Positions 6,041 to 61,212 of a DNA stretch of 64,000 nucleotides are shown piece after piece. The notes under the pieces were generated by a model. The model saw nothing but the letters and a program-made list of their open reading frames with translations. It was not told the DNA's origin and did no database searches. The position numbers and the translations under genes are program-made. The first letter of the stretch is position 1, and every line of letters begins with the position of its first letter. This DNA comes from an uncultured Candidatus Saccharibacteria bacterium (GTDB lineage: Bacteria > Patescibacteriota > Saccharimonadia > Saccharimonadales > UBA4665), in NCBI GenBank assembly GCA_964610985.1, contig CAZSZJ010000003.1, positions 143 to 64,142 of the forward strand, given 5' to 3'.

Positions 6041-6207
6041 TTTGTTGATACGCTATTGCTCCTTGGACGTTTTTGAGGCGTCCACCCCTGAAAAACCAGA
6101 GGGAAACGCCAGAATTTTTGCCTTTCAAAGGCACTTCCCGCGTTTCAAGCATAAGTATAGACTATATATGCCCTTTTGGGAAGGCCAGAGACTTTTACTT
6201 ACCCCTG

Positions 6208-17594: not shown

Positions 17595-17657
17595 ATATCT
17601 TCTATAACCCTCGTCTGTATTATACCGTTTTGCTTATGCTAGAGCGAGACTCTAATT

Positions 17658-18701: not shown

Positions 18702-18747
18702 AAACCCTCTTTTTACTAGGAATTAACCTTTAGCCTTTAGTTTACCA

Positions 18748-19803: not shown

Positions 19804-19833
19804 ACACGCACCGAAGCTGGCTAAAGCCTAAGG

Positions 19834-21120: not shown

Positions 21121-21187
21121 ATGAAAGTATTTTTCGTTTTAAGATTATCATAAAACATAAGCATTTCGCAACCTTTTTGCATGCAAT

Positions 21188-21934
21188 TTAAAACGTGGGG
21201 ACCACTTGTATATTAAGCCGCCCGCCATACTGCCCGGCCGGAGTAGAACGGTCCACATTGGCAATAATTGAAAGCGAGTAATTGGTTTGCCCACTGCTTT
21301 TATTACTAAAAGCGATGGTGTCGCCATTAACAAACTTAAAAAGGTTGGCAGTATCGTAACCAGACGCCGCTGACCCAAATCCAAAGGTCACATCTGGTAT
21401 TTGCGACGGATCGGCACCAATATCGGGTACTGAATTATTAACTAAATTAAGTCCGAACTGCTCAACACCTGCCTGCGACGACGTCGGCGATCCAAGCGAA
21501 GAAAGTGCGTGCGAACTACCGTTAGCTGTAGTAGGCGATGCACCATGCACCAGCACCACATAGCCGCTGCTCAGATAATTGCGCACCGTAAAAGTTGCGA
21601 CCGCCGACCCGGTGATGCTGGCATCGATAATGCCCAGATCGTATACGCCGCCGTTTACCGCAAACTCCAAAAGCGGTACATTGGATGTGTTAAATCCGCC
21701 CTGAAATTGGTAGTTGGTGCTAGCCGAATTGCCAACGGTCAACTCCCCGGCCGATTGTTTGGCCTTATAATTCGTCGAAGATGGGTCCAGCTCGCCGCCC
21801 GATCCAAAAAACGATTCCTCAACTTTGTAGTTGGTCGAAGTTGATTGCGCATACGCCGGCATAGAGCTCACCGCTATCAACACAAGCACGGCCATGCCCA
21901 TAGCAATAACCCCAACCAACTCATGCAGTTTCAT
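21188..21934 (-). CDS. secreted surface protein, paralog 1 (smallest), with three STNY(K/Q) mini-repeats
   Basis: The ORF-track start at 21970 is TTG. ATG at 21934 gives MKLHELVGVIAMGMAVLVLIAVSSMPAYA, a signal peptide. STNYKVEES / STNYKAKQS / STNYQFQGG repeats. C-terminal VEQFGLNL...YDTANLFKFVNGDTIA...NVDRSTPAGQYGGRLNIQVVPTF-stop. Confidence 0.7.
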   Translation of the reverse strand: MKLHELVGVIAMGMAVLVLIAVSSMPAYAQSTSTNYKVEESFFGSGGELDPSSTNYKAKQSAGELTVGNSASTNYQFQGGFNTSNVPLLEFAVNGGVYDLGIIDASITGSAVATFTVRNYLSSGYVVLVHGASPTTANGSSHALSSLGSPTSSQAGVEQFGLNLVNNSVPDIGADPSQIPDVTFGFGSAASGYDTANLFKFVNGDTIAFSNKSSGQTNYSLSIIANVDRSTPAGQYGGRLNIQVVPTF

Positions 21935-22001
21935 GACTGCTATTGTGCGCCAAGCTGCATCAAAAGACAATCCGTTTACGCTTTAGAAAGACTCTAGTAT
22001 T

Positions 22002-23078
22002 ATGTACAGGAAGCTTATGGATCCATCGCAAGTTCAGTCTGACAAAGAAAACGATACCAATTCGCTGGAAAGTAGCGGAACGACTGTTGATAATGAAAAA
22101 CCCGCGGACAGTTCTGTGCCCTCCAATGAACTAGAAAACTCGTCTGAAGCCTCTGGCTCCTCTAGTTCATCGATTGACGCCAGAGGTTCCGAGGGCACTG
22201 GTAGCACACAAACTAATACTTCTGCTCGACCACCTTTTTTCAAGCGCCTGTGGCAAAAATTTAATATCTACCTGCTCTTGTTTGCACTTGTTATTTTGCT
22301 CGCCATCGGTATAACTTTGGGACTGTTTCTTAAAAACCGCAGTGACACCAAAAAAACTGAAAGCATCATTAACTCGCAAAACTTGTCCGAAAGCGCGCTC
22401 AAGCAACTAGCTAATAGTGACGTCACCGTTGGCAACTCCAAGCAAGTGTTAAAAGTTGTATCAAACGCCCTATTTTCCGGCTCGGTACTGGTGCGCGGTG
22501 ACCTGGAAGTCGCAGGTAGCGTAAAAGTGGGGAACGAGCTACAGCTGCCTGGCATTACCGTATCCGGTTCGAGCCGATTTAACCAGTTGCAGGCCGACAA
22601 CCTGACAATTGGCAGTAATGCTACCGTACAGGGCACATTTAACGCCAAAAAAGGCATAAATGTTTCAGGGAACAGCACGTTTGACGGCCTCTTATCGGCC
22701 GCGCAAATCTCCACCAACGTATTTATTTTGAACGGCGACCTTAAACTTACACATCACATTACGGCCGGTGGTTCCACGCCATCGGTCGAAAGGGGCGGCG
22801 CGCTCGGTTCGGGCGGCACCAGCTCGGTCAGCGGCTCGGACACCACCGGATCAATAGTCGTAAACACTGGTGGCAACCCCGGCGCAGGCTGCTTTGCCAC
22901 CATCAAATTTGCTACACGCTTTGACGGCACGCCGCACGTCACTATTACACCAATCGGCAGCGCCTCGGCCGACATCAATTATTATGTCAATCGCAGCAGC
23001 ACCGAGTTTAGCGTCTGCACCACCAATCCAGCTCCAAGCGGCCAAACCTTCGGCTTCGATTACGTTATCCTAAACTAA
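22002..23078 (+). CDS. single-pass membrane protein with extracytoplasmic beta-helix-like repeats
   Basis: Low-complexity Ser/Glu N-terminus and a TM (IYLLLFALVILLAIGITLGLFL). Then short repeats of the type VLVRGDLEVAGSVKVGNELQL / ITVSGSSRFNQLQADNLTIGSNATVQGTFNAKKGINVSGNSTFDG, followed by a Gly/Ser-rich stretch. Divergent from the surface locus. An alternative ATG at 22017 follows AGGAAG. Confidence 0.65.
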   Translation: MYRKLMDPSQVQSDKENDTNSLESSGTTVDNEKPADSSVPSNELENSSEASGSSSSSIDARGSEGTGSTQTNTSARPPFFKRLWQKFNIYLLLFALVILLAIGITLGLFLKNRSDTKKTESIINSQNLSESALKQLANSDVTVGNSKQVLKVVSNALFSGSVLVRGDLEVAGSVKVGNELQLPGITVSGSSRFNQLQADNLTIGSNATVQGTFNAKKGINVSGNSTFDGLLSAAQISTNVFILNGDLKLTHHITAGGSTPSVERGGALGSGGTSSVSGSDTTGSIVVNTGGNPGAGCFATIKFATRFDGTPHVTITPIGSASADINYYVNRSSTEFSVCTTNPAPSGQTFGFDYVILN

Positions 23079-23111
23079 CTTTGCACTAGACTATGCGTTA
23101 TACTCATACAA

Positions 23112-23600
23112 ATGAGAGCATCCCCGGATATTGAGCCCGAGCAGTGGCCTTCGGTTATATTCGATACTGCGTTGCACGCCCGTAATTTACTCGAAAAAAC
23201 GTGGTCTCCCGAGACCGCTTTTCAGGGCATAGAATTGCAACCTGACGATGTGGTGTCCCGCGGTCAGTGCGGCGTAAGCGCCCTCTGGCTCGCCCGACAT
23301 CTGTACCAACAAGGTATCGACGCTCATTTTACAGAAGGGATAATCAAACTGGATAATCTAAAAGATGAGCAGGTATGGGTGGAGGTCAGGCGACCAGACA
23401 TGCAGCCATTAATCGTTGATATTACGTCCGACCAATACCAGACGCCGAACAGGACAGCCGTACATGTCGGCAATTATGCCAGCGGCCCCGGCACAATAGG
23501 ACACTATGAACCTTTGCAGTATTTTTCACCATTTGAAGTACCCCGCCGGAAACTACTTGCCCGCTTCGCAATTTTAGAACAAAATATTGCCCGTCGATAA
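23112..23600 (+). CDS. hypothetical protein (162 aa), possible papain/transglutaminase-like fold (very tentative)
   Basis: ATG start. The segment SRGQCGVSALWLARHLYQQGIDAHF...EQVWVEV...IVDITSDQY resembles the Cys ... (H)aWvEv ... D layout of transglutaminase-like cysteine peptidases. The expected His is Gln, so this may be inactive or a false resemblance. Confidence 0.4.
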   Translation: MRASPDIEPEQWPSVIFDTALHARNLLEKTWSPETAFQGIELQPDDVVSRGQCGVSALWLARHLYQQGIDAHFTEGIIKLDNLKDEQVWVEVRRPDMQPLIVDITSDQYQTPNRTAVHVGNYASGPGTIGHYEPLQYFSPFEVPRRKLLARFAILEQNIARR

Positions 23601-35188: not shown

Positions 35189-35278
35189 TGGTGGGCGAGG
35201 AGGGACTCGAACCCTCAAGGCTTATTCAGCCAGCGGATTTTAAGTCCGCCGCGTATACCGATTCCGCCACTCGCCCGC
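35189..35278 (-). tRNA. tRNA-Leu (anticodon UAA), type II with long variable arm, CCA encoded
   Basis: The reverse complement reads GCGGGCGAGTGGCGGAATCGGTATACGCGGCGGACTTAAAATCCGCTGGCTGAATAAGCCTTGAGGGTTCGAGTCCCTCCTCGCCCACCA. Anticodon loop CT-TAA-AA, T-loop GGTTCGAGTCC, acceptor stem pairs. Confidence 0.9.
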
Positions 35279-35337: not shown

Positions 35338-36432
35338 CTACTCTAGAATCTCAAGGGGCGTGGTGAGTTCGATGGTAGGCGCACTTGGATATTCGTAGGA
35401 TTGCTTGTTAAAACCGAGGTTAGCTTTGCGTACTGGTTGCTCCGGATCTTTCTGCTTGTCTTCGCCAACACCGGTCAGCTCGCTATACAATGGCAGGCCG
35501 AGCTGCTCGTCTACTAAGTAATAACCTTTTACGCCGCCATTCTTTACGGCATTAATAGATATGAATTCATACTTCCATTCGGCTTTGGGATGTTCACGGG
35601 TAATCTTTTCGATTTCGGCGGTTTCAAAAAAGATGTTGGAAAGTTGTTCGTTTATTGTTGATGCGTCGCCGCGGGGTTTAAAGCCGTATTTGCGGAGTTG
35701 TTTGCCGTCACGGACTACAATACCTTCGTCAGTAATAGTGAACAGGTTAGCGGCCTGAAGCTTGTTTTTCCAGTTGGCGGCTTGGCTGTTGGCGAGAGTA
35801 ACGGGCATGAGTCCGTCGGACATACGTGCCGGTGCAAGGTCTACAATGCCCCCAGGTCTAACGCCCAGATATGGACAAACCGAAAACGAATTGGCTTCCG
35901 TAAGTATATACATCTGTTTGAGGTACTCGTTGGCCTCCGTCAGGTTCTTGGGTGCAGGCCGTCCCGACCCACCTGCCGACACCAACCCATCCCAATATGC
36001 CGTACCATCTATGCAGCGCTCCATGTCGAAGTCGGTTTTGTCGTATGACCGCTGGGCGTACACGCCGCGGTATTTATTATTGACGAGTTCGCCAATACTG
36101 GACTGGATAAAACCAGGATCATTTTTGGCCTCGAGATCCGCCTTGGTGGCGTAAGTAGTGCGGTATTGGGCGACACGGATATTCTGCTGGGCAGCGCCTT
36201 TGGCGAGCGCGTCATAAAAACCGGCGACAACTTTGGGGTCGCTTGCCTGGACGTTTTTACTATTATCGCTTTTGTTGCCGCGCAGTGCAAAGAATAAAAG
36301 CGCTATCGTCAATACAACGACAATAATAACGGCCGGAATCAGCCATTTACCCAATTTCTTGCCATTTGAGGGCGCGTACCCCGGGTTAATCGGTGAGAAA
36401 TCACCGCCACCTTGGCTACTATTGCTATCCAT
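35338..36432 (-). CDS. single-pass membrane protein with large extracytoplasmic domain, function unknown
   Basis: The ORF track extends to 36540, but that extension runs through tRNA-Cys. ATG at 36430-36432 gives MDSNSSQGGGDFSPINPGY...GKWLIPAVIIVVVLTIALLFFAL (TM) plus about 290 aa outside. No family recognised. Confidence 0.65.
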   Translation of the reverse strand: MDSNSSQGGGDFSPINPGYAPSNGKKLGKWLIPAVIIVVVLTIALLFFALRGNKSDNSKNVQASDPKVVAGFYDALAKGAAQQNIRVAQYRTTYATKADLEAKNDPGFIQSSIGELVNNKYRGVYAQRSYDKTDFDMERCIDGTAYWDGLVSAGGSGRPAPKNLTEANEYLKQMYILTEANSFSVCPYLGVRPGGIVDLAPARMSDGLMPVTLANSQAANWKNKLQAANLFTITDEGIVVRDGKQLRKYGFKPRGDASTINEQLSNIFFETAEIEKITREHPKAEWKYEFISINAVKNGGVKGYYLVDEQLGLPLYSELTGVGEDKQKDPEQPVRKANLGFNKQSYEYPSAPTIELTTPLEILE

Positions 36433-36472
36433 AATATCCCCCTTAGTATCTCTTGGTTTTGAAAAGTCTAAA

Positions 36473-36546
36473 TGGAGGCACCGACCGGACTTGAACCGGT
36501 GTACAAGGTTTTGCAGACCTCTGCGTAACCACTCCGCCACGGCGCC
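36473..36546 (-). tRNA. tRNA-Cys (anticodon GCA), CCA encoded
   Basis: The reverse complement reads GGCGCCGTGGCGGAGTGGTTACGCAGAGGTCTGCAAAACCTTGTACACCGGTTCAAGTCCGGTCGGTGCCTCCA. Anticodon loop CT-GCA-AA, 7-bp acceptor stem with one G-U, discriminator U, T-loop GGTTCAAGTCC. Confidence 0.9.
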
Positions 36547-36657
36547 AAAAAGTGATCTTCATTATCTTACTACATCTGTTTGTGCCGAACAACCACCTCG
36601 AGACATCTGTGCGATATTCAACATCAAAAATGATCCCACTTGTGGTAATCTAGATGC

Positions 36658-38046
36658 ATGAATCCACAAGAACCCTCCAATTTTAATGCACTGAACCAAC
36701 AGCCAGTCCAGTCTGGCGCAGAGCCATCATTTGGCCAGCCTCAGCCGCCCAAAAAACGCATGTCCAAGGGTCTTAAAATAACCCTGATTGTCGTGGGTGT
36801 GTTGGTCTTGTTGCTGACAATTCTGCGCATCCGCGCGGTCATCGTTCAAAATAATAAAAACGACACAAAGGGAAGCAAGAGCAGCCAAACCAAACAGCCC
36901 AACGGCCAAATCGCCAGTACCGGACCCAAGGTTTTTACCGTTAGTTACGCCAAAGAAGCGCCTTCTTATGCCGGCAATAAGATGCACGACGCCTGTTCGC
37001 TTCTTAGTTTTGAGGGGGCCATGAGCAAAGTTAAGGGTATACCGGAGTTAAATGACGTTAAAACGCTTCAAAAACCACTGAGCATTGAACACAACTACAC
37101 CGACCACAACATTCCCGGAATCTTAGGGACAGATGGCCAGCCACGCAAAATAACGCAGACTATCAGCAGCGAGGGCTCAAAGCCAACCAGCATGGACAAT
37201 TTTGCTTCTATCGCCAACAGCTACTGTGTGTACGGCCAGAACTTGCCTAGCAGCGTAACTTTTGCCCGCGTATATGTAACTCAGCCGCCCACACCGCTGA
37301 CTCCGGAATTCCTGCCTTTCCTAGCCAATCTGCCAAAAAAACAAGTTAACGGCGTAGACGTATACACCGTTGACACCCCGAACGAGAATGGCTTTATGTA
37401 TGCCGCCATGATCCGCGCCGACAAAAAAGTAGCTGTTATTTTAAAAACCGGCAACACTGACATCATGGACTCCGGCGTCAATGAAATAACCAAAAAAATG
37501 ACCGCCACACCAATTGGCTATGCCAAGTATGAGTATCCCGGCATGTACGGCAAGCTCGTCGACTCTTGTTCGCTGTTTAGCGCAGCCGATTTTGAGCGAT
37601 TTATGGGCAAAAAAGCTGCTTCCACCGTTACCGAAAGCCTTATCGTAACTAAAGGCTACGACCTTGGCGTCGACCGAAACTGCCGTCGTTCACAGGTAGA
37701 CAGCCAGCTCGAGCCAGTATATGAGTCCGATACCGCAGATATTACTATTCGCCAAGGCAAGAGTGAGCTAGCAGCCAAATCGTGGCTTGAATCTAAAAAA
37801 GGCAGCATTTACATCTTTACACCGTCCCAAACCAAGCTCGGCGATGAGTCGCTCATAAGAGTAAATGAGGGCAATGATGATAACTCCCGCCGTTCATACA
37901 AGCTCTTTGTCCGCATCGAAGCCGCGGTTATCGAGATTGACCTCGACCAAAGTGCCGCCGGTGACGCATCGGCAGCCGCCTTTGAACAACGCATCATGCC
38001 CGCCGCCAAACAGATCATCGAAAACTACCAAAAACAGATTAAATAA
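36658..38046 (+). CDS. membrane-anchored extracytoplasmic protein with two DUF3558-like repeats (tentative)
   Basis: Pro/Gln-rich N-terminus and a TM (LKITLIVVGVLVLLLTIL). There is an internal duplication marked by HDACSLLSFEGAMSKVKG and VDSCSLFSAADFERFMGKKA. The '(D)xCSLL(S/T)...' start is typical of DUF3558-type secreted proteins. Confidence 0.6.
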   Translation: MNPQEPSNFNALNQQPVQSGAEPSFGQPQPPKKRMSKGLKITLIVVGVLVLLLTILRIRAVIVQNNKNDTKGSKSSQTKQPNGQIASTGPKVFTVSYAKEAPSYAGNKMHDACSLLSFEGAMSKVKGIPELNDVKTLQKPLSIEHNYTDHNIPGILGTDGQPRKITQTISSEGSKPTSMDNFASIANSYCVYGQNLPSSVTFARVYVTQPPTPLTPEFLPFLANLPKKQVNGVDVYTVDTPNENGFMYAAMIRADKKVAVILKTGNTDIMDSGVNEITKKMTATPIGYAKYEYPGMYGKLVDSCSLFSAADFERFMGKKAASTVTESLIVTKGYDLGVDRNCRRSQVDSQLEPVYESDTADITIRQGKSELAAKSWLESKKGSIYIFTPSQTKLGDESLIRVNEGNDDNSRRSYKLFVRIEAAVIEIDLDQSAAGDASAAAFEQRIMPAAKQIIENYQKQIK

Positions 38047-38101
38047 TCTGCGGCGGCCCCTCCCTGTTGACGATTGCGCCATATAATCGTATGGTGCAAT
38101 T

Positions 38102-38680
38102 ATGTCCAACATGAACGAACTCGGCTTCCCGATGTGGGATCACCTGCGGATGGACGGGCGCTACCTGAAGACCGTCCAATGCATAGACTTTCTTGGCAGT
38201 AGTCTAGGTGGCGAGACATCTCTTACCATGACCATCAACGACAGAGACGAGCCCCTCCTACCCGGCACGATATTTGGCAGCATCATACGCTACCGCTGGC
38301 GCCAGCGCGAATGGGAGACCTGTAACGGCAACCGCCGCGTTTCCAACCCTTCAACCCGTTTGCACCTGCAAGGCTACTACACCGGCCAAAGCGTCGAAAC
38401 CCCTATTACTGTTCCGGGGTTTAAAACCAAAGAACCGGTCATGCTGCCGGTTGTCGACCTCAAACTTTGGCGCTGGAGCCAGCCTTATAAAATAGACGTG
38501 GGTCAGATCGCCCTTGCCCGCCTTTGCGAAGGCGAGCGCGCAGTGATTCAGGAAATAAATTTTGACCACCAGGCAATTATGCGAGACCAAAAGATCGAAC
38601 CCAGGACCGACAACCCTCATCCCTATTTAAGCACCGTCCAGTTCGGGGGCCTCTACGTCGTGCCACTAGCCCCGGGCTAG
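38102..38680 (+). CDS. hypothetical protein (192 aa)
   Basis: ATG start 55 nt after the preceding gene. Trp/Arg-rich (RYRWRQREWETCNGNRR). Its 3' end overlaps the convergent gene by 15 nt. No family recognised. Confidence 0.5.
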   Translation: MSNMNELGFPMWDHLRMDGRYLKTVQCIDFLGSSLGGETSLTMTINDRDEPLLPGTIFGSIIRYRWRQREWETCNGNRRVSNPSTRLHLQGYYTGQSVETPITVPGFKTKEPVMLPVVDLKLWRWSQPYKIDVGQIALARLCEGERAVIQEINFDHQAIMRDQKIEPRTDNPHPYLSTVQFGGLYVVPLAPG

Positions 38681-39631
38681 GTGTCTCGCATCTCGTTTCT
38701 CGCGTACGCCCTGAAAGTCATCGAGCCGCATACTGACTACACGCGATAAGACACGCAATTTCGCAGCTGTGTTTTTAGAGACCTTACCGGCTTCGGCTTT
38801 GAGGAACATATTAAGCGTGTCAATCGGACCATCGGTCGACCGGATAACCAGATCATCTTGGCCGTAAAAATAGACTACGTCCTTTTTGTACGCCTCATTA
38901 TATCTTCGGTTGCCCGACTTCAGCTGCACCAGTACTTTTTTGTGTGAATCTCCCGCTGAGACGGCTATATAATCGGCCCGCATCTTTGCCGAAAAGCGGT
39001 TATGTTCTTGCCGAAAAGATGCCGGTAGTGTCAGGTACCGTTGGGGTTCGTCAAGTTGTGATACGAGCCCATAGGCCATTTCGGTCGCCAGGCCAGACCG
39101 CGATTCGCGCTCTTGCGTCGTTTTGCTAGGCAAGGCCATGACCCCTGACCCAAGCTCCAGACAGCCCGACCTAACCTTTTGAAACTTGGCCTCGGTCACT
39201 TCGTCATCTAAGGGCTCGTAGGCCAACCACGAGGCCGCCACCTCCATAAGGGGAAGATACGACAATGACTGAACGAGCCTGACCCCAGTATCACGCACAT
39301 CAAGGTTTTTACGCTCCGTGGACTGAGCCCGACGCAAATCCGACATTTCTTCGCCAGCCCCGAGCCAATGCTCAGAAGCCTGGCTCAAGTAGCCGAGTCT
39401 CGTTTCGAGTTTACCAGAATTCCTTCCTTTTCTGCCCCGGAAAAGTGCCGCTTCGGCGGCCGCCCAGCCTGCGGCATAGCGTACCAAAGGATGATCATTC
39501 GTGCCCATTTGATCACTCATTTTCATGAATTGATCAGGTGACCGGCTGTGATTGGCAATGTAGTCACGAAAATGTGGATCCTCAAAATCAAAAGCTTGCT
39601 CTAATGGCGATCGAGTGTCGAGATGTTGCAT
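38666..39631 (-). CDS. hypothetical protein; C-terminal half may be a PD-(D/E)xK nuclease-like fold (tentative)
   Basis: The ORF opens at ATG 39655, but ATG 39631 is preceded by TAAAGGAT at 6-nt spacing. The C-terminal half has GLATEMAYGLV ... ADYIAVSAGDSHKKVLVQLKSG, an E ... D ... QxK arrangement compatible with restriction-endonuclease-like folds. Confidence 0.5.
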   Translation of the reverse strand: MQHLDTRSPLEQAFDFEDPHFRDYIANHSRSPDQFMKMSDQMGTNDHPLVRYAAGWAAAEAALFRGRKGRNSGKLETRLGYLSQASEHWLGAGEEMSDLRRAQSTERKNLDVRDTGVRLVQSLSYLPLMEVAASWLAYEPLDDEVTEAKFQKVRSGCLELGSGVMALPSKTTQERESRSGLATEMAYGLVSQLDEPQRYLTLPASFRQEHNRFSAKMRADYIAVSAGDSHKKVLVQLKSGNRRYNEAYKKDVVYFYGQDDLVIRSTDGPIDTLNMFLKAEAGKVSKNTAAKLRVLSRVVSMRLDDFQGVREKRDARHLARG

Positions 39632-39673
39632 GAATAATCCTTTAGGATATAGCATAATACATCGATCCGTGTG

Positions 39674-40904: not shown

Positions 40905-41864
40905 TTATTTACTATCTATAGTCAATTTAGGTGCGAGCGCAAAACTTCCAACCTGAAAGGCCTGACTAGGCGAAACATCATAACGCCAAGTCATGGCAGG
41001 ACACACATGATCAAATGCCTCATCAATATGACCGATAATCGGCTTTTGCATCATTAATATTTTTTTGTCATCAACGAATTCGACCATAGTGTCGGCAAAA
41101 TGTACGGTGCCATTATCTCTTACAAGTCGACGCAAATGGTCGATGTGGCCAAATTGCAGGCTAGCATTTTGATCGTCAAGCGCCAAAACCAGAGCTGCCG
41201 CCTCGCCGTCTGGATTCATTTCGAATTGTCTGCCGAATTTTCCAGCACTGAGAGGACCAAGATGCATAATAGGGAGGGAGGCCAGCTGTGACATGAGAAG
41301 CTGTGAGCACACAAATGAAAACTTTTCGCCTAAATCCAACCGATTCTTAGTTACATCTATTTCACGTACCATCGCTGCAGCTTGTTGTACAAAATGCTGA
41401 TAGCTAGTTGTCGTAGCAGCTTGTCCGAACGCCCTATCAAAATCTTTGGCAACACCAGAGATGTCAGCCCTTACAAGACTGACTTTGCCCAATAAATCGA
41501 AAGGCAAGGCATTAAGAGCAAGTTCAGTCTGGCTTATGTCGGCGTCAACGAGCACCGTTTTATCGAACTCCGATACTATGTCGATAAGAGGAATGTCTCC
41601 GCAACCACCAGCCCCAAGAATAAGAGCATTCCGCTCCTCACCAGTAACTGACCGCGCTAAAGCCACCTGGGCCGTGGCATATATGTTTTCATGACTATAA
41701 TCCAGATGATCAGCCTGAAAGTTATTTGCGTAAAGTAACCTATCCGCTGCAATCGCCGCGTTCATTGAGCCATAGGCTGAATGTAGAACCGGCGAGAAGC
41801 CTTCTGCCGAAGGTTCAACTCGGTTCGACAAGAGATGCTTATTGGGACTGTTGGGTTCAGTCAT
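40905..41864 (-). CDS. putative class I SAM-dependent methyltransferase-like Rossmann protein (divergent)
   Basis: ALILGAGGCGDIPL (motif I-like), TVLVDADIS (acidic end of beta-2), VSLVRADISG (motif III-like). 319 aa. No close family recognised. Confidence 0.45.
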   Translation of the reverse strand: MTEPNSPNKHLLSNRVEPSAEGFSPVLHSAYGSMNAAIAADRLLYANNFQADHLDYSHENIYATAQVALARSVTGEERNALILGAGGCGDIPLIDIVSEFDKTVLVDADISQTELALNALPFDLLGKVSLVRADISGVAKDFDRAFGQAATTTSYQHFVQQAAAMVREIDVTKNRLDLGEKFSFVCSQLLMSQLASLPIMHLGPLSAGKFGRQFEMNPDGEAAALVLALDDQNASLQFGHIDHLRRLVRDNGTVHFADTMVEFVDDKKILMMQKPIIGHIDEAFDHVCPAMTWRYDVSPSQAFQVGSFALAPKLTIDSK

Positions 41865-41943
41865 ATCAGCTGATAACTATACCATATTGACGGTAGTTAG
41901 CAATTCCTGACGTTCTCTGAGTCTCCGAACGGCGTAAGTCTAT

Positions 41944-43287
41944 CTATTCGTAGCGGTACATGTCGGCTACATATTTGTCATCGAAGTTACGCCGGTCCCA
42001 ATCGTATACCGAAGACAGGACCGCACCGCCCAATAGTTGGCCTTCTTTTAGCGGTTGCTTATAGAAATCGGCGAACGCTTTTTGGTATGCCACCGCATAC
42101 TGGAAGGTCCATAATTGTCCGGAAGATGTCTTGATCGTGATTTTGTCGTCCTGGATCTTAACAATCTTACCCTCAATGTTGCGCCATTGGTATTGACGTG
42201 TTTCTGCAGTCGGAACAGCAACACCTTCTCCGGTGGGCATCATGTTTGGATTGCCATGCATCTGCCCTTTATGTTGCCCGGGATAAATGTTCCCCGCGTA
42301 AAAGCTTTGTCCACTTTTGTCATCCCTAAAGGCATTGGGGCATGTATCCGCACCATTGCCCATACAAACCTGTGCCCAGGCACCTAATCCGAACTCAGAA
42401 ATATCCATTTGGGAAATTTCATCCTGCTGTTGCTGGTCCGCCTTAGTATTAATCGGGCCTTTGGTCGCGGTCGCCTCTTTAATTGCTTCGTAAGGGTGCG
42501 AAAGCGCGAAGACCGAAAAGAGATCTACCGGCGCGGGCCTCTGTCCAGAATGCTGGATATGGCGCAAATAATCATCTTGGTATACTGCCACCAGTTTGCC
42601 CACAGCATCCGCCTGGATTTCGGCCTTTTTACCTTCTTTGTAGTAGTAGAATTCGGCACGCGGAATGGTAATGTGTTGATCGATGTCCTGCGAAGTTTCG
42701 TATTTGCTGCGGCCCATAGAATAGGTCAGATGCAGCACGACATTTTCGCCCGTAACCTGTTCGACTGTTCCGATACGCGGTGCTATAAAGTCGACACGGA
42801 ACGGATCGGTTATATACTCCACGCCATCTTTGGGTACGGTGTAGGCATTAGCAGCATGAAAGTGCAGCAGGTCTATCATGTTGATTTCGGCAAAGGCCGA
42901 AACCGCTATGTCGCTGTAGGAACGCTTTGAGCCATAAGTAAACTCGCGCGGTTTTTGTCCGTTTGGCGTCTGGTACGTAACTTTGACTTCGTTGCCGATG
43001 ACGATTCGTTTAATGAGTGAGAGCGGGTTCGTTCCTTTGGCATAGGCATAGCCGCTAAAACCGAGCATTGCGGCCACCGCCAAAACGAGCGATAGGGCAA
43101 CGGCGCGGCGCGGAGCGGAGCGCCATGTGATACTACGGATACTTTGCCAGATGCTTGGCTTTTCGTAGGCCAATTTGTGTTCGTCCCCCAACCTTATGGC
43201 ATTCAAAACCGACGTAGTGAAGAGGCTATACGTTTTGTGTTCCGGTCGCGATACCACCAGATACGCCTCTAATTCATGCTCATTCAT
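41944..43287 (-). CDS. putative anti-sigma factor, single TM, large extracytoplasmic domain
   Basis: ATGA overlap with the ECF sigma stop. Short cytoplasmic N-terminus, a TM (AVALSLVLAVAAMLGFSGYAYA) and about 360 aa outside. The role is inferred from position and topology. Confidence 0.6.
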   Translation of the reverse strand: MNEHELEAYLVVSRPEHKTYSLFTTSVLNAIRLGDEHKLAYEKPSIWQSIRSITWRSAPRRAVALSLVLAVAAMLGFSGYAYAKGTNPLSLIKRIVIGNEVKVTYQTPNGQKPREFTYGSKRSYSDIAVSAFAEINMIDLLHFHAANAYTVPKDGVEYITDPFRVDFIAPRIGTVEQVTGENVVLHLTYSMGRSKYETSQDIDQHITIPRAEFYYYKEGKKAEIQADAVGKLVAVYQDDYLRHIQHSGQRPAPVDLFSVFALSHPYEAIKEATATKGPINTKADQQQQDEISQMDISEFGLGAWAQVCMGNGADTCPNAFRDDKSGQSFYAGNIYPGQHKGQMHGNPNMMPTGEGVAVPTAETRQYQWRNIEGKIVKIQDDKITIKTSSGQLWTFQYAVAYQKAFADFYKQPLKEGQLLGGAVLSSVYDWDRRNFDDKYVADMYRYE

Positions 43288-43808
43288 GACAGCTTGCTCC
43301 TGAGCTGCTGTTTGGCACGGCGCATCCAGCTTTTTACGGTATTTATGGGTACGTCCATTTCGTCAGCGATTGCCTGGTAACTGAGGCCGTCCCAGTAATA
43401 CGCCTCGATGGTGCGACGCTGTTCGGGCGGCATTAGGTCAAGCACGGCTTTCCGCACTTCGTGGATCGTTTCGTCATGCATCAGGGCGGCGTCGAGCGCC
43501 CCCGCACCCTCCACATCTTCCATATCGCTCGGCACTGCCCGCTTCCCGGCCTTCAGGATATCAAGCACCATATTAGTCGCAATACGGTACAGCCAGGTCG
43601 AATACCGAGCCTTGCCGCCATCAAAATCTTTTAGTTTTTCGTATGCTTTAATGAATGCGCGCTGGGCAACGTCTTCCGCTTCGTCGCGGTCGCCAAGCAA
43701 CCGGTCGCAGTGAATGACAAGGCCCACACGATAGCGCTCGACGAGCTGGCCATATTTGTCCAGGTCGCCGGCACATATCTGTTTGATTGTTTCTGCTTCG
43801 TTGTTCAT
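43284..43808 (-). CDS. ECF-type RNA polymerase sigma-70 factor
   Basis: Region 2 (YRVGLVIHCDRLLGDRDEAEDVAQRAFIKAYEKL ... STWLYRIATN) and region 4 HTH (LSYQAIADEMDVPINTVKSWMRRAKQQL). The ORF-track start at 43814 is GTG; ATG at 43808 was chosen. Confidence 0.9.
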   Translation of the reverse strand: MNNEAETIKQICAGDLDKYGQLVERYRVGLVIHCDRLLGDRDEAEDVAQRAFIKAYEKLKDFDGGKARYSTWLYRIATNMVLDILKAGKRAVPSDMEDVEGAGALDAALMHDETIHEVRKAVLDLMPPEQRRTIEAYYWDGLSYQAIADEMDVPINTVKSWMRRAKQQLRSKLS

Positions 43809-43862
43809 ATCCACTATACGATTGAACCGCTGATTTGTTGCAGGACTATTGCAGTAACCCGT

Positions 43863-54445: not shown

Positions 54446-54616
54446 CTCTAGAAACACCCCTCTTATTATGATTGGTTAACAGTAGCATAAGCCGGTAATT
54501 GCGGCGTGTGGATTTTTCGCAAGACAGGCTTGCACTTTAGGGTCACTTATTTGTACAGTCGGAAGCGTGGAAGAATTAACCTTATTGTATTACCCGCCTG
54601 ATGGGAATGTTCTTGC

Positions 54617-55399
54617 TTACGGCCGAAGCGTACCCACAAACACTTGCCATGCCAGTGCGCTCTTGGCCAGCAGGCTTAAGACGATGTAGGCTTTTTCGCC
54701 GTACAGGTAGTCGCGCCATTTGCCAATTCTTTTGTATTGCAAAATCATATTGACTGCGAAACAGTTGAAGAACAGGAAGATACTGGCGTAGATGTAGTAG
54801 ACGAAGGTTGGAATCTCACCAGATCCATAATTCTCACCAGCCCAAAAGTAGATACCGATAACCACCCAAGGCAAGATACCGGCCAGGGTGCCTATATTAT
54901 AGGCGAGCCAGCTAACCTTTTCGCGGCCCTGGTTATAGAGCTCCATAGCCAGGCCCATCAGGTTCATGATGGCCGTCAGCCCAAAAATCATGACCAGCGA
55001 ACCAAGATCGTATATACCGGATAATAGGGCGATGCCGACCATCATGGTGCTGGCGCTGAGGGCATATTCAATCCACCGCACTTTATTAATGCCGTGTTTC
55101 AAATTGGCTTCATAACGCCTGCAGTAAATAGTCGCCACAAATAGATGCGCTACTGCGCTCAGCAAGAAGAAGGTCACTACAAGGTAAGCGAGATTAACGT
55201 CAAATATTGGCTGGGTTGCCGACGCCAAAACCGGCTTGTCCGGCGTAGACGGATCGAGTGTTAGGTGGTTGGCTGTGACGCTCCATATACCGCGGTTCGG
55301 GTCACTCAATATAAAAACGGCCAGGGCTTGTACAGCGTGCAGCCCGGCCATGATCAAATTAAATCTTACCAAGCCTTTGGTAGCAATCTTTTTAGGCAT
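54617..55399 (-). CDS. heliorhodopsin (7-TM retinal-binding photoreceptor)
   Basis: 260 aa with seven hydrophobic helices. Close by-eye match to HeR 48C12, as remembered: VRWIEYALSAS (48C12 RWVEYSLSSS, counterion Glu = E111 here), GEKAYIVLSLLAKSALAWQVFVGTL (48C12 GERAYIVLSLVAKSALAWQIFSGTL, Schiff-base Lys = K246 here). The conserved His residues are present as H21 and H85. Confidence 0.9.
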   Translation of the reverse strand: MPKKIATKGLVRFNLIMAGLHAVQALAVFILSDPNRGIWSVTANHLTLDPSTPDKPVLASATQPIFDVNLAYLVVTFFLLSAVAHLFVATIYCRRYEANLKHGINKVRWIEYALSASTMMVGIALLSGIYDLGSLVMIFGLTAIMNLMGLAMELYNQGREKVSWLAYNIGTLAGILPWVVIGIYFWAGENYGSGEIPTFVYYIYASIFLFFNCFAVNMILQYKRIGKWRDYLYGEKAYIVLSLLAKSALAWQVFVGTLRP

Positions 55400-55416
55400 G
55401 TTGAATCTGCAAAGAC

Positions 55417-55632
55417 TTACGCTTTTTTAGCGCTGCTCATCATCTTGACCAGGGTATATATGCCGTAAAGGGAGGCAACACCCACAAGAGCATAAATGAC
55501 TCGCGATACGCCGGATTCCACGCCAAAGATTTCGTCCACCAGATTGTACTTCATCCAACCGACAAGGCCCCAGTTAAAACCGCCAATAATAAGTAGTAGC
55601 ATTGCCAGCTTGTCTAATGCATCCATTTTCAT
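55417..55632 (-). CDS. DUF378 family small membrane protein
   Basis: 71 aa. LLLIIGGFNWGLVGW...SRVIYALVGVASLYGIY matches the DUF378 pattern (IGalNWGlvG ... iiY.lvGlaal). AAGGGTGGG SD upstream. Confidence 0.8.
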   Translation of the reverse strand: MKMDALDKLAMLLLIIGGFNWGLVGWMKYNLVDEIFGVESGVSRVIYALVGVASLYGIYTLVKMMSSAKKA

Positions 55633-55713
55633 ATTCCCACCCTTTGTTGTTATTTATACTTAAAGCATAAGCCTTGTTAGCTAAATTAGCAATGGGTTAT
55701 GGTGAACGCTGCA

Positions 55714-58092
55714 TTATGGATTTAACGGATTCCACTGCCAGTTGCGAACCTCCGGCATATCAATGCCATGCACCTTAATATACTCGGCGTGTTCGATCAG
55801 TTTTTGCTGCATAAGCTGCTTCAGCTCCAAGGCCTCGGCACCCGTAATACCGCCGTAGTCAATAGCGTCTATAACCAAACGGAACCGGTCCATATCGTTG
55901 CGCACCGTCATATCGAAGGCGGTTGTAATTGTACCCTCCTCCTTGTAACCGCGCACATGCAGATTGCGATTGGCACGGCGATACGTCAGACGGTGGACAA
56001 CCCACGGATAACCATGGAAGGCGAAGATAATCTGTTTGTTCTTGGTAAATAACGCATCATACTCCATGTCGCTTAAGCCGTGCGGATGTTCCGTGTCGGG
56101 CTGAAGCCGCATAAGATCGACTACATTCACAACGCGGACGCTTAAATGCGGCAGACGTTCGCGAAGGATGGATACGGCCGCAAGAGTTTCCAGTGTAGGC
56201 ACGTCACCGGCGCAGGCCATAACTACATCGGGTTCACCGCCATGGTCGTTGCTCGCCCAATCCCACACGCCCACGCCTTTAGAGCAGTGCTCGATAGCCT
56301 CGTCCATGGACAGCCACTGCGGACTGTCATGTTTGCCGGTGATAGTCAGGTTGATGTAGTTACGGCTTCTCAAGCAATGATCCATGGTAGACAGTAAGCA
56401 GTTCGCATCAGGTGGTAAGTAGATGCGTACAACCGCCGCCTTTTTGTTGAGCAAGTGGTCAATGAAGCCGGGGTCCTGGTGCGTAAAACCATTGTGATCC
56501 TGCCGCCACACATGCGAGGTCAGCAGATAATTGAGTGACGCGATCTCGTGTCGCCACGGCAACTCACTGCACATCTTAATCCATTTGGCGTGCTGGTTGA
56601 CCATGGAGTCGACAATGCGGATGAAGGCTTCGTAACTGTGAAAAATGCCATGACGTCCTGTAAGTAAGTAGCCCTCCAGCCAGCCCTGAGCTTGATGCTC
56701 GCTGAGCATAGAATCCAGTACCGAGCCGGTTGTTGCCAAAGATTCATCTGTTGGCCTAATGCGTGCCGACCATTGCCTGTTGGTTGCTTCAAGGACCGCC
56801 TCCAATCTGTTAGAGACAAGCTCGTCCGGACCAAATATCCTAAAGTTATGATGTTCTTCATTATGCTTCACTACATCCCGCAAATATGGGCCAAGTGCAT
56901 GAACATTTCCCTCGTTGGCGGCGCCGCGGTACTCGACCGTAACGGCATAGTCGCGGAAGTCCGGCAATTCTAGCTCACGCAAGAAACTGCCGCCGTTGGC
57001 ATGAGGATTCGCTCCCATGCGGTGCTGACCGACGGGCGCTAATGCGGCAAGCTCTGGCAGTAACGTACCGTTTTGATCAAACAGCTCTTCCGGCTTATAG
57101 CTTTTTAGCCAGTCTTCGAGGACCGCCACATTATCCGGGTGGGCAGCATCGACAGCGAGCGGCACCTGGTGCGACCGGAAATTTCCTTCTATCTGTTTGC
57201 CGTCAATGGTTTTCGGCCCTGTCCAGCCCTTCGGCGAGGCGAGTACGATCATAGGCCAGCGCGGCCGGGTGGTGTCGCCGTTATTCCGGGCATTGTCCTG
57301 AATTCGCTTAATCTCACGAATTGCTTCGTCGAGTTTCGCGGCCATAAGCTGATGCATCTGCATCGGATCATCGCCTTCCACAAAATAGGGCGTCCAGCCA
57401 TAGCCACGAAAGAGCTGCTCCAGCTCATCGTGTTCGATTCTAGCAAGAATAGTAGGGTTGCTAATCTTATACCCGTTAAGATGCAAAATTGGCAGTACCA
57501 CGCCATCGGTTTTCGGGTTAATAAATTTATTGGAATGCCAGGCAGTCGCGAGCGGGCCCGTTTCGGCCTCGCCGTCACCGACAACACAGGCGGCAATAAG
57601 ATCAGAATTGTCGAAAACCGCGCCAAATGCATGGCTTAGGCTGTAGCCGAGTTCACCACCTTCATGAATTGATCCGGGTATTTGCGGGGAGACATGACTG
57701 GATAGCCCTCCCGGAAAAGAGGACATCTTGAATAGCTGTTTAAGCCCGGTTTCGTTTTGCGCGACTTTAGGGTAACACTCCGTAAATGTACCCTCCAGGT
57801 ACACATTGCTGACCAAGGCGGGTCCGCCGTGACCCGGGCCGGATAGGTAGATCGTATTAAGACCATATTCTTTAATAACCCGGTTCAGATGAACATATAT
57901 AAAGTTCTGGCCGGGGGCGGTGCCCCAGTGTCCGAGCTGTAGCTTCTTAACATGCTCTAGGCGTAACGGCTCTTTGAGCAATGGATTATCGCATAGATAA
58001 ATCTGCCCTACAGACAAATAATTAGTTGCCCGCCAATAGGCGTCAATAGCATGCAGTGTCTTCTCGTCTAGTATGTTCTCGCCTTGATTCAT
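55714..58092 (-). CDS. xfp: xylulose-5-phosphate/fructose-6-phosphate phosphoketolase
   Basis: 792 aa. [27 protein letters not shown] and [16 protein letters not shown] signatures. Confidence 0.95.
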
Positions 58093-58110: not shown

Positions 58111-59286
58111 TTACATTAATCGAGCCGTTTCGCGTGCGATAGTGGCTGCCTCATCGGTAGGAATAACATGCACGCCAACCCGTCCGCCATCAGCCGAAAT
58201 GAGACGCGCGCCTTCCTGGTTGTGGGCAGCATCGATAGTAATGCCCAAGAACTCCAGCCCAGTGCATATCCTGGCCCTAATCTCTGGAGCGTTTTCACCG
58301 ATACCGCCGGTAAACACCAAAGTATGCATGCCGCTGAGCGCTGCCGCAAAGCCGCCGATGCTCTTTTTGACGTGGTAGCAGAATGTATCTACTGCCTCTT
58401 TTGCGCGTTCGTCTTCTGTCTCGATTTCGAGCAGCTTCTTCATATCGGCCGTGGTTTCGGAGATGCCAAGCAAACCCGACTCGAAATTGACCATGCGGTT
58501 AAAGCGTTCGGCGTCATAGCCCAGCGTGCGTGCGAAGTAGAGCGCCAGGCCGGGGTCGAGATCGCCGGACCGAGTGCTCATCGGTATGCCGGAGGCAGGG
58601 GTCATACTCATCGTCGTATCGATAGGTTTGCCGTTTTGGAGGGCGGCCAAGCTTGCGCCGCTGCCCAGATGAGCGATGATGACTTTGCCGTTTGCTGCCG
58701 TTTCACCCTCAACCCGCCGCAATTCCTCTAGAATGTAGGCATACGATAGACCGTGGAAACCGTAGCGGCGCAAGCCTTTCGCCTCGAAATGGCGTGGGAT
58801 TGGCAACCGCCGTGATTGTGCCGGCAGATCGTGATGGAAGGCCGTGTCAAAACAGAGCATTTGTTGCGCCTGCGGTAATATATTTTGAAAGACCGTAACG
58901 AGTTCCAGCTCGATTGGCAAATGCTCAGGATCGAAGGCTACCAACTTTTGCAAGTCCGTAAGCGCTTCGTCAGTCGCGACTAGTGTTTCATGATAGTCCG
59001 GCCCGCCATGCACAATACGGTGGCCGACTGCCCTTATAGATGCAACGGCGACTTGAGCGGTCAGCCACTCCATTAGTAGTTTGCCGGCGTCCGAGTGATT
59101 ATCTACGGTAACTAGTCTCGCGCCGTCAGGCATTACAAGCCTTGCTGACGGCTGGCCGATGTTTTCGATGACTACCTCGAGCACTTTTTGAGTGGGATGA
59201 TGCGCGGCAAATAAGGCAAGCTTGATGCTCGACGATCCGGCATTAACCGTCAGGATATAGGTATCACTACTACTCGTTGCTTCCAT
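58111..59286 (-). CDS. ackA: acetate kinase
   Basis: 391 aa. ILTVNAGSSSIKLALF, VGHRIVHGG, FDTAFHH and AHLGSGASL motifs. 18 nt upstream of xfp. Confidence 0.95.
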   Translation of the reverse strand: MEATSSSDTYILTVNAGSSSIKLALFAAHHPTQKVLEVVIENIGQPSARLVMPDGARLVTVDNHSDAGKLLMEWLTAQVAVASIRAVGHRIVHGGPDYHETLVATDEALTDLQKLVAFDPEHLPIELELVTVFQNILPQAQQMLCFDTAFHHDLPAQSRRLPIPRHFEAKGLRRYGFHGLSYAYILEELRRVEGETAANGKVIIAHLGSGASLAALQNGKPIDTTMSMTPASGIPMSTRSGDLDPGLALYFARTLGYDAERFNRMVNFESGLLGISETTADMKKLLEIETEDERAKEAVDTFCYHVKKSIGGFAAALSGMHTLVFTGGIGENAPEIRARICTGLEFLGITIDAAHNQEGARLISADGGRVGVHVIPTDEAATIARETARLM

Positions 59287-59943: not shown

Positions 59944-61212
59944 CTATTTAATTCCCAGATGCTCACCTATGACTTTGGGAATTGAAGCAACGGCCTCTAG
60001 CCTATGGGGATTAAATAAATCTGTCCATTGATTCTCGAGTCCGCAAATCTGGTCTGTCAGTAGCATGCCAGCAACCGTGCCATTCGTTAGACCCCACTTC
60101 ATAAATCCCGTAGCTGTATAGGTATGTTTTGACCAAGGATAGAGTTTGCCTATAAGCGGCATGTCATCGTAGCCCAGATAATCACGATGTGTCCACTGGT
60201 ATTCGATATCGGTTATACCAAAATACTTCTTTGCATATTCGGCTAAACGCTTATACCGAACTTTTGGATTAAAACGTGTTAGTGGAATGTGGCCTTCGCC
60301 GCCTATCAAAAGAAAGTTCTCTTTTCCATCTTTTACAGGCAGAATTGAATAGTGGCCCTTGTCCGGTGAGATATACATACCTTTTACTGCGTGGTCTATT
60401 TTTCCAGCAACGATATAAGATTGCATTGGATATTCAACTATACAGTATGACCCTCTCGCAAATAATGGAAATGTAGGAACATTTGTTGCAACGATAATAT
60501 GTTTAGCATGTACACTGGCTTTTGTTGTTCTCACTCTTCCAGGATTACTATCTCTTATTCCCAGAGCATGAGAATGCTCATAAATATGGCTGCCATCTCC
60601 ATCAATTGCTTTTGCTAATCCCGATAGATACTTTTGAATATGAAAGGTTGCTTGTCCAGAAAATCGAACGGCTCCTTCGATTGGGAATGGTAAGTCTGCA
60701 CTTCGCTCAAAGGTTGCCGGAAGGCCGAGTTTCGCGGCCGTGGCCGCTTCAGCTTTAAATTCTTTAATTTGGCCCGGGTTAGTCGTATGAACAAAATTAT
60801 CTTCGGGTCGCCAGTCGCATTCGATATGTTCATCTTTAATAATTGCAGCAATCTTGTCGATAGCCTGCTGATTTGCTTTTCCATACATTCGAGCTTTTTC
60901 TTCACCCAACCGTTTACTCAATTTGTTGTATATGAGATTGTGTTGCGAGGTTATTTTCCCTGTTGTATGACCACTTACACCAGCGCCAATGGTATCTTTT
61001 TCTAAAACAATAACTTTTAGTCCGGCTTTTTTTAGAAGATATGCTGAAGTCAACCCTGCGATACCTGCACCAATAATTACTACATCTGTCTCCGCATTTT
61101 CTAGCAAAGCAGGATAACCTGGGCTTTTCGTAGTCGTTAGCCAGTACGAGCTTTTATCTTGCAGCGAATCGATCACTACTCTAATTATAGTTGTTGTGCG
61201 GTTAGTGTGCAA
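59944..61212 (-). CDS. FAD-dependent oxidoreductase (DAO family)
   Basis: DVVIIGAGIAGLTSAYLLKKAGLKVIVLEKD dinucleotide-binding motif. 422 aa. The only available start is TTG at 61212, so the exact start is uncertain. Confidence 0.8.
   Translation of the reverse strand: MHTNRTTTIIRVVIDSLQDKSSYWLTTTKSPGYPALLENAETDVVIIGAGIAGLTSAYLLKKAGLKVIVLEKDTIGAGVSGHTTGKITSQHNLIYNKLSKRLGEEKARMYGKANQQAIDKIAAIIKDEHIECDWRPEDNFVHTTNPGQIKEFKAEAATAAKLGLPATFERSADLPFPIEGAVRFSGQATFHIQKYLSGLAKAIDGDGSHIYEHSHALGIRDSNPGRVRTTKASVHAKHIIVATNVPTFPLFARGSYCIVEYPMQSYIVAGKIDHAVKGMYISPDKGHYSILPVKDGKENFLLIGGEGHIPLTRFNPKVRYKRLAEYAKKYFGITDIEYQWTHRDYLGYDDMPLIGKLYPWSKHTYTATGFMKWGLTNGTVAGMLLTDQICGLENQWTDLFNPHRLEAVASIPKVIGEHLGIK

Follow-up and report, generated by a model that had tools for sequence, protein, structure and literature searches.

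Progress on the physiology of heliorhodopsins (HeRs) has come from tests of the proteins encoded beside them in operons, for example glutamine synthetase, photolyase or an ABC transporter. A stretch of 64,000 nucleotides (nt) from an uncultured Candidatus Saccharibacteria bacterium (contig CAZSZJ010000003.1; hereinafter, the window) encodes an apparent HeR directly downstream of a small membrane protein of the DUF378 (YuzA-like) family, which raises the questions whether the HeR is genuine and what the adjacency of the two genes means. The gene is an intact, genuine heliorhodopsin, a new member of a known family, and the DUF378-HeR operon is a genuine, conserved and previously undescribed arrangement that arose once, is restricted to one clade and can lose either of its two genes.

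The heliorhodopsin, the DUF378 protein and their operon

A Pfam search started with the HeR protein identifies PF18761 with 305 bits (cut-off 26.7), the match spanning profile positions 1-242 of 242, and the NCBIfam equivalog NF038020 is matched with 309.9 bits (cut-off 100). The sequence matches in PDB include TaHeR (E=8e-69) and 48C12 (E=5e-48). Residues H21, H85, E111, S242 and K246 correspond to H23, H80, E107, S237 and K241 of 48C12 (native numbering, 6su3), and the counterion Glu and the Schiff-base Lys also align with E108 and K238 of TaHeR. The counterion E111 (codon GAA at 55069-55067), which corresponds to the single counterion Glu of this family in transmembrane helix (TM) 3, sits within RWIEY, and the Schiff-base K246 (codon AAG at 54664-54662) is located in TM7, where it forms the SxxxK motif together with S242; none of the five residues varies among the 20 relatives that were aligned. 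The AlphaFold2 model (pLDDT 78, pTM 0.75) consists of 7 TMs and a beta-hairpin between TM1 and TM2 (strands 40-48 and 58-69). In a Foldseek search, the ten best PDB matches of this model are all HeRs, with TM-scores of 0.77-0.85 (0.82-0.85 for 6is6, TaHeR), compared with about 0.5-0.63 for type-1 rhodopsins. Profile searches, PDB matches and fold all agree with the assignment to the heliorhodopsins proposed in a preliminary description of the locus, and the retinal-pocket residues named there are in place: both quoted motifs are present, and the Lys, the Glu and the His pair align with 48C12. As predicted from the sequence, the protein is expected to be a retinal-binding 7-TM photoreceptor with a slow photocycle and no pumping activity.

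The HeR gene evolves under purifying selection (dN/dS = 0.04, with a median dS of about 1.7). The NCBI gene call (P0001, 244 aa) begins at Met17; the start at Met1 (position 55399) is preferred here because the N-terminus MxKKITTKxLVRFN is conserved in relatives. The first 12 residues (MPKKIATKGLVR) include four Lys/Arg and no acidic residue, a charge count that fits the positive-inside rule for the putative cytoplasmic N-terminus of an inverted membrane topology.

The DUF378 protein matches PF04070 with 74.9 bits (cut-off 25) over residues 5-61, and the Pfam and NCBIfam scans reveal no further domain in it and, in particular, no signalling domain. It is confidently modelled as a two-TM helical hairpin with a short loop helix (helices 5-27, 31-36 and 41-70; pLDDT 91.9), for which Foldseek detects no significant structural match in PDB (every E-value above 3). 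The NWG motif (N20, W21, G22), V24 and G25 are invariant in the DUF378 alignment, and the gene is also subject to purifying selection (dN/dS = 0.08). The literature on DUF378 assigns it no function, and a literature search for yuzA yielded nothing relevant.

Alignment of the DNA located 5' of DUF378 in the window and 14 related loci reveals a conserved block (55692-55633, reverse strand) within the 81-nt spacer between xfp and DUF378. In order, this block contains a predicted sigma-70-type promoter (a -35 element, 17 nt and a -10 element; Table 1), a leader, a ribosome-binding site (AAAGGGTGG) and the DUF378 ATG. The promoter is common to every aligned locus, and the sequences 5' of the -35 element are unrelated between loci. 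Given that the synonymous sites are saturated over the same distance (the median dS between the loci), the conservation of this non-coding block is meaningful. A regular expression for the promoter finds 20 matches in the 1.77 Mb of fetched loci, 19 of which lie directly upstream of the module, and the motif occurs once in the window. A generic promoter scan missed it because only 8 of the 12 consensus positions match, so that the promoter was revealed by cross-locus conservation.

The HeR gene starts exactly 17 nt past the DUF378 gene, as originally described, and in 13 related loci the gap ranges from -3 to 20 nt. Together with the conserved promoter 5' of DUF378, these short gaps indicate that the two genes are almost certainly co-transcribed, as had been proposed. 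No Shine-Dalgarno-like motif for HeR is present within the 17-nt spacer; with no separate ribosome-binding site, HeR probably relies on the translation of DUF378 for its own, and translational coupling is plausible.

The octamer CTTATGCT, which overlaps the -10 element, was considered as a special regulatory operator. It occurs five times in the window compared with about two expected, always in intergenic regions (331-338, 6148-6155, 17633-17640, 54484-54491 and 55664-55671), and one copy, located upstream of purK, is the -10-like element of that gene. The four other intergenic copies led us to reject the operator and to regard the octamer as a generic -10 element, probably the typical -10 region of housekeeping promoters in this host.

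Distribution of the pairing and loss of either gene

For comparison, 80 genome loci were retrieved with an HeR alignment as the query and 80 metagenome loci with the window protein; DUF378, xfp, ackA and purK were scored in all fetched loci, and 144 HeR loci could be evaluated for an upstream DUF378. A DUF378 gene lies directly upstream on the same strand, at the distances given above, in 13 of the 15 evaluable loci with an HeR at least 77% identical to that of the window, and in none of the 129 loci below this identity. No DUF378 occurs anywhere else in the 1.68 Mb of HeR loci. The DUF378-linked HeRs form a single clade in the neighbor-joining tree, which implies that the linkage arose once. 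Within this clade, the flanks of the cassette are unrelated, with about 10 different contexts. Non-recurrence of the adjacency in other genomes, which the preliminary description had named as a refutation, thus applies to HeRs in general and not to the close clade. The pairwise dN values of DUF378 and HeR correlate (r=0.62), as co-inheritance alone would bring about.

Several apparent extensions of the pairing were examined and rejected. A DUF378 protein with 57% identity (P0217) and an HeR with 64% identity (P0114) both list a 2,427-bp contig, which is a coincidence. Locus L173 has no room for an HeR, and L174 encodes an HeR (66% identity) without DUF378. No HeR accompanies the more distant DUF378 genes (52-59% identity). 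The long HeR homologues (281-327 aa), candidates for Rosetta-stone fusions, are not fused to DUF378; their additional length consists of Lys/Thr/Ser-rich N-terminal tails or results from over-extended starts. In three of the Patescibacteria homologues (P0109, P0113 and P0118; 320-327 aa), the N-terminal extensions comprise 60-70 residues, are highly basic and rich in Lys, Thr and Ser, and would be cytoplasmic; they match neither DUF378 nor any other known domain.

Inside the clade, each gene has been lost with the other retained. In L088 and L002, the DUF378 open reading frame (ORF) is deleted, with different end points, and both loci still have the promoter and ribosome-binding site together with an intact HeR; in L089, HeR is located behind a different gene. 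Conversely, in three lineages DUF378 is intact and the HeR beside it is missing, has become a pseudogene or carries a frameshift. The loci L162 and L163 contain the same promoter and an 85%-identical DUF378 without HeR, and the usual place of HeR downstream of DUF378 is occupied by an unrelated 200-aa multi-TM protein without a Pfam match (L162:5305-5907). L166 and L167 are 98.8% identical over the first ~4.5 kb, which includes the upstream genes and DUF378, and diverge in the downstream genes; HeR is intact in L167 (4291-5076) and a pseudogene in L166 (4291-4611), with a 1-nt insertion that creates a stop, an internal deletion and a truncation. In L091 (5766-6572), HeR is frameshifted just before the Schiff-base Lys ('...SLLATIVSRR...' compared with '...SLLAKSALAWQ...'), which is either gene decay or a sequencing error. 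That each gene is lost with the other kept suggests that the promoter belongs to DUF378 and that HeR is an add-on; given that each is dispensable to the other, DUF378 would be at most a facultative modulator of HeR and not an obligate transducer.

Among the 157 Patescibacteria HeR loci (within L001-L160), the genes that recur next to HeR encode MsrA (in 24 loci, usually as the second gene upstream of HeR), the UV endonuclease UvdE (5 loci), RsmE-like and TrmA/RlmD-like rRNA/tRNA methyltransferases, a PD-(D/E)XK nuclease, an NmrA-like protein, a HAD hydrolase and, divergently, a sortase. This wider neighbourhood fits a theme of photo-oxidative and UV damage. In two ENA metagenome contigs (L171:4001-7243 and L172), a distant DUF378 (52% identity) is directly followed by a gene of the NmrA-like/DUF2867 type and one for a DNA photolyase, with MerR, Fpg and glutathione peroxidase genes further upstream, a setting related to light and oxidative damage. 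In 6 Saccharibacteria loci, HeR likewise has an NmrA-like gene immediately upstream.

Host lineage, retinal supply and neighbouring genes

The host is a bacterium of the Saccharimonadales, a lineage of the candidate phyla radiation (CPR). The homologues of HeR and DUF378 come overwhelmingly from metagenome-assembled genomes of Saccharibacteria/Saccharimonadales, along with metagenome contigs; the ATP synthase beta subunit of the window shares a cluster of at least 90% identity with an NCBI protein from a Candidatus Saccharimonadales bacterium; and the gene content of the window, housekeeping genes and long runs of ORFs without Pfam families, is consistent with a CPR genome. A Pfam scan of about 58 window ORFs detects no phytoene synthase, phytoene desaturase, lycopene cyclase, Blh, CCD, polyprenyl synthase or bacteriorhodopsin family, in agreement with the initial observation that no gene for carotenoid or retinal biosynthesis is present in the window; the FAD protein encoded at 59944-61212 is a member of the DAO family rather than a CrtI-like one. 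Nor was blh found in the Saccharibacteria genomes with rhodopsin genes that were examined previously; retinal has been proposed to come from the actinobacterial hosts of these bacteria, and HeR is cited as rapidly taking up external retinal (PMC9296517). Accordingly, the suggested requirement for exogenous retinal is a reasonable inference that fits the lineage and is already published. In a separate study, 80 HeRs have been catalogued in Saccharimonadia, and CPR HeRs have been linked to protection from oxidative stress (PMC9166423). The occurrence of HeR and the absence of blh-based retinal synthesis in Saccharimonadales are therefore already known.

HeR and DUF378 are part of a co-directional run, ackA-xfp-DUF378-HeR-purK, which is real. 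The gene previously called purK-like encodes a true PurK (TIGR01161, 399 bits, cut-off 318); the ATG at 54445, with AGAGGGG in front of it, is a more probable start codon than the GTG at 54457. The window also encodes an F-type ATP synthase. A mobile element was considered and rejected: direct or inverted repeats that convincingly flank the module are absent from the window, and a tRNA adjoins the module in L001 only.

Table 1. Features of the DUF378-HeR operon and the adjacent genes (positions in the window)
Feature	Position	Strand	Description or basis
Predicted sigma-70-type promoter of the DUF378-HeR operon	55664..55692	-	-35 TTGCTA, 55692-55687; 17-nt spacer; -10 TATGCT, 55669-55664
5' leader AAGTATAAATAACAAC and DUF378 ribosome-binding site AAAGGGTGGG (55644-55635)	55633..55663	-	Conserved in the window and 14 loci
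DUF378 (YuzA-like) small membrane protein	55417..55632	-	71 aa; Pfam, AlphaFold2
Spacer, DUF378 stop to HeR ATG	55400..55416	-	17 nt; read from the sequence
Heliorhodopsin (HeR) coding sequence	54617..55399	-	260 aa; Pfam, NCBIfam, PDB sequence matches, AlphaFold2/Foldseek
xfp (true phosphoketolase)	55714-58092	-	Pfam/NCBIfam
ackA (acetate kinase)	58111-59286	-	Pfam/NCBIfam
purK	53303-54445/54457	-	TIGR01161

Elsewhere in the window, there are runs of consecutive ORFs of 160-460 aa without a Pfam family at E<=1e-5 (17658-23600, 35338-39655 and 40905-43287), which are typical of CPR genomes and could include lineage-specific surface or host-interaction proteins. One of these, a 400-aa ORF (35338-36540, reverse strand), overlaps with its 5' end a tRNA-Cys gene (36473-36546, reverse strand), so that its start is probably over-extended; a tRNA-Leu is located at 35189-35276. 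A gene for an ECF-type sigma factor (43284-43814) shares 4 nt with the downstream gene of a 447-aa protein without a family match (the pair occupies 41944-43814, reverse strand), and this protein may be an anti-sigma factor.

Competing explanations and known systems

We consider it likely that the window encodes a functional HeR in a DUF378-HeR operon driven by the DUF378 promoter, and that the linkage, of single origin, is a loose one at the level of expression. Under this reading, HeR would be the distal gene of a two-gene operon transcribed from the housekeeping-type promoter of DUF378, which it would borrow, so that the linkage would be mainly one of expression. The arrangement would have arisen once, in a narrow clade (HeR identity of at least about 77%), and would have been inherited through many rearrangements of the flanks. 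HeR would act by modulating other proteins rather than by pumping ions, and the bacterium, a soil or rhizosphere-type member of the Saccharimonadales, would most likely obtain all-trans-retinal that its environment or its host provides. What the sequences show is the assignment to the family, the key residues, the anatomy of the operon, the conservation of its promoter, the phylogenetic distribution and the independent loss of either gene; we infer the uptake of retinal, translational coupling and a mode of action as a sensor or regulator. Several points weigh against this account. The operon promoter is predicted, resting on conservation, and no terminator is predicted after xfp, so that read-through from ackA-xfp is possible. 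The frameshift in L091 and the deletion in L088 could be assembly errors or population variants, 64 kb without retinal genes says little about the whole genome, and a junction of 16-20 nt that is kept over about 10 contexts and a saturated dS could reflect selected co-expression of interacting partners.

That last point leads to an explanation which we regard as unlikely, namely that DUF378 is a dedicated membrane partner of HeR, a mini-transducer, chaperone or retinal-loading helper. By analogy with the docking of TM1-TM2 of HtrII on sensory rhodopsin II, its two-TM hairpin would dock on HeR, and the operon would fix the ratio of the two proteins. The tight gap and the lack of a ribosome-binding site for HeR suggest coupled translation, the cassette persists through its many contexts at a dS of ~1.7, both products are integral membrane proteins, and the confident two-TM model of DUF378 is compatible with such docking; the correlation of dN is in the same direction, though co-inheritance suffices to account for it, and the photolyase/MerR neighbourhood of the distant DUF378 hints at a light-related role. 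However, the pairing has a single evolutionary origin and is absent from all 129 other Patescibacteria HeR loci, DUF378 has been deleted twice independently with HeR and the expression signals retained, and in three lineages HeR is gone or decayed while DUF378 persists under the same promoter. Moreover, no fusions of the two proteins are found, DUF378 has no output domain, and it is not among the ten partner groups described for HeRs (PMC11109279). Thus, the notion of the preliminary description that HeR is wired to DUF378 is weakened by the recurrence of the adjacency in one clade only, by the implied single origin, by the absence elsewhere and by the loss of each gene without the other; the evidence speaks for shared expression more than for an obligate complex. 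The narrower proposal that DUF378 is a true HeR partner in this clade, for instance a two-TM modulator or a helper in the loading of host retinal, that is co-produced by coupled translation appears rather improbable. If correct, a function would for the first time be assigned to the widespread DUF378/YuzA family, HeR partners would gain an eleventh class, and the photolyase/MerR neighbourhood of the distant DUF378 would point to a broader light-stress role of the family.

Two other explanations are very unlikely. The five genes of the run could be one transcription unit that joins light sensing to the ATP-yielding phosphoketolase/acetate kinase pathway, given that they are co-directional, that, as had been noted, no intergenic terminator-like site is predicted from ackA to HeR, and that the HeR-purK spacer forms no stable hairpin (z=+1.6). 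This possibility is largely refuted by the comparative context: the conserved promoter separates xfp from DUF378, purK has its own -10-like element, and among 172 related loci ackA and purK are never found near HeR, whereas xfp is found once (L002), convergent and on the other side of HeR. The earlier suggestion of wiring to xfp-ackA, or to the metabolism of carbon and ATP, is accordingly not supported, and the best explanation is that xfp, ackA and purK are chance neighbours of DUF378-HeR in this genome. It is equally hard to credit that HeR is an ion transporter that energises a fermentative CPR cell. Some viral HeRs transport protons, and the F-type ATP synthase in the same window would be compatible with such a role. 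However, the closest solved relatives, TaHeR (46% identity) and 48C12 (40%), are both reported to be non-transporting, and no sequence feature was found that separates the window HeR from non-pumping HeRs. Furthermore, pumping in Saccharibacteria is assigned to the type-1 SacR rhodopsins (PMC9296517).

On the preferred reading of a shared promoter and loose linkage, the locus adds an undescribed type of HeR neighbour, a 71-aa DUF378 membrane protein, in a CPR episymbiont that is probably unable to make its own chromophore. The picture of HeR photochemistry and of the retinal dependence of Saccharibacteria is unchanged. The main value of the locus is that of a cheap, well-controlled system, HeR with or without DUF378, and of a possible first clue to the function of DUF378. 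Natural controls, which are seldom to be had, are available in the form of HeR without DUF378 (L088, L002), DUF378 without a working HeR (L162/L163, L166, L091) and the near-isogenic pair L166/L167. These controls suggest that the coupling of HeR and DUF378 is transcriptional and not obligate; they lower the expectations of a partnership yet ease clean experimental design.

Comparison with the known HeR operons reveals both similarities and differences. As with AbHeR and glutamine synthetase, HeR and photolyase, and OcHeR and the OmrDE ABC transporter, HeR is co-transcribed with its neighbour from a single promoter; the concept that emerges from the published operons is that HeR regulates the product of the adjacent gene. 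The ten published groups of operon partners are glutamine synthetase (GS), NAD+ synthetase, photolyase, MerR, TerC, ABC transporter, SDR, alpha/beta hydrolase, DUF2177 and DUF2238 (PMC11109279), and a literature search found no publication that names both heliorhodopsin and DUF378. Unlike these partners, DUF378 has no known activity, and either gene has been repeatedly lost with the other kept. In function, the nearest analogy is the pair of SRII and HtrII, in which the gene of a 7-TM retinal photoreceptor adjoins, and is transcribed together with, that of a partner supplying two TM helices. However, the signalling parts of HtrII (HAMP and the methyl-accepting domain) are absent from DUF378, which has only 71 aa, no homology to DUF378 was detected, HeR would have the inverted topology of its family, and the co-occurrence of HeR and DUF378 is non-obligate, as the loci below 77% identity and the losses inside the clade indicate.

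The Saccharibacteria HeRs and the SacR type-1 rhodopsins (PMC9166423, PMC9296517) come from the same host lineage, and DUF378 is not mentioned in those reports; the MsrA and UvdE neighbours fit the link to oxidative stress (PMC9166423) in the wider clade, not in the window. At the level of the protein, the founding HeR, 48C12 (PDB 6SU3, 6UH3), is only ~40% identical to the window HeR in the Foldseek alignment, with a TM-score of ~0.8, and all its key residues align. The best match among the solved structures is TaHeR from a Thermoplasmatales archaeon (PDB 6IS6, 7U55), with 46% identity in the Foldseek alignment. Compared with TaHeR, the window HeR is bacterial, is encoded downstream of DUF378, and has a loop that is 5 residues longer (W186-E195, 'AGENYGSGE') as well as a longer TM1-TM2 loop. 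The two proteins have in common the counterion Glu, the Lys of the SxxxK motif, the His pair and the TM1-TM2 beta-hairpin, and TaHeR is cited as rapidly taking up external retinal through an opening of the apoprotein (PMC9296517).

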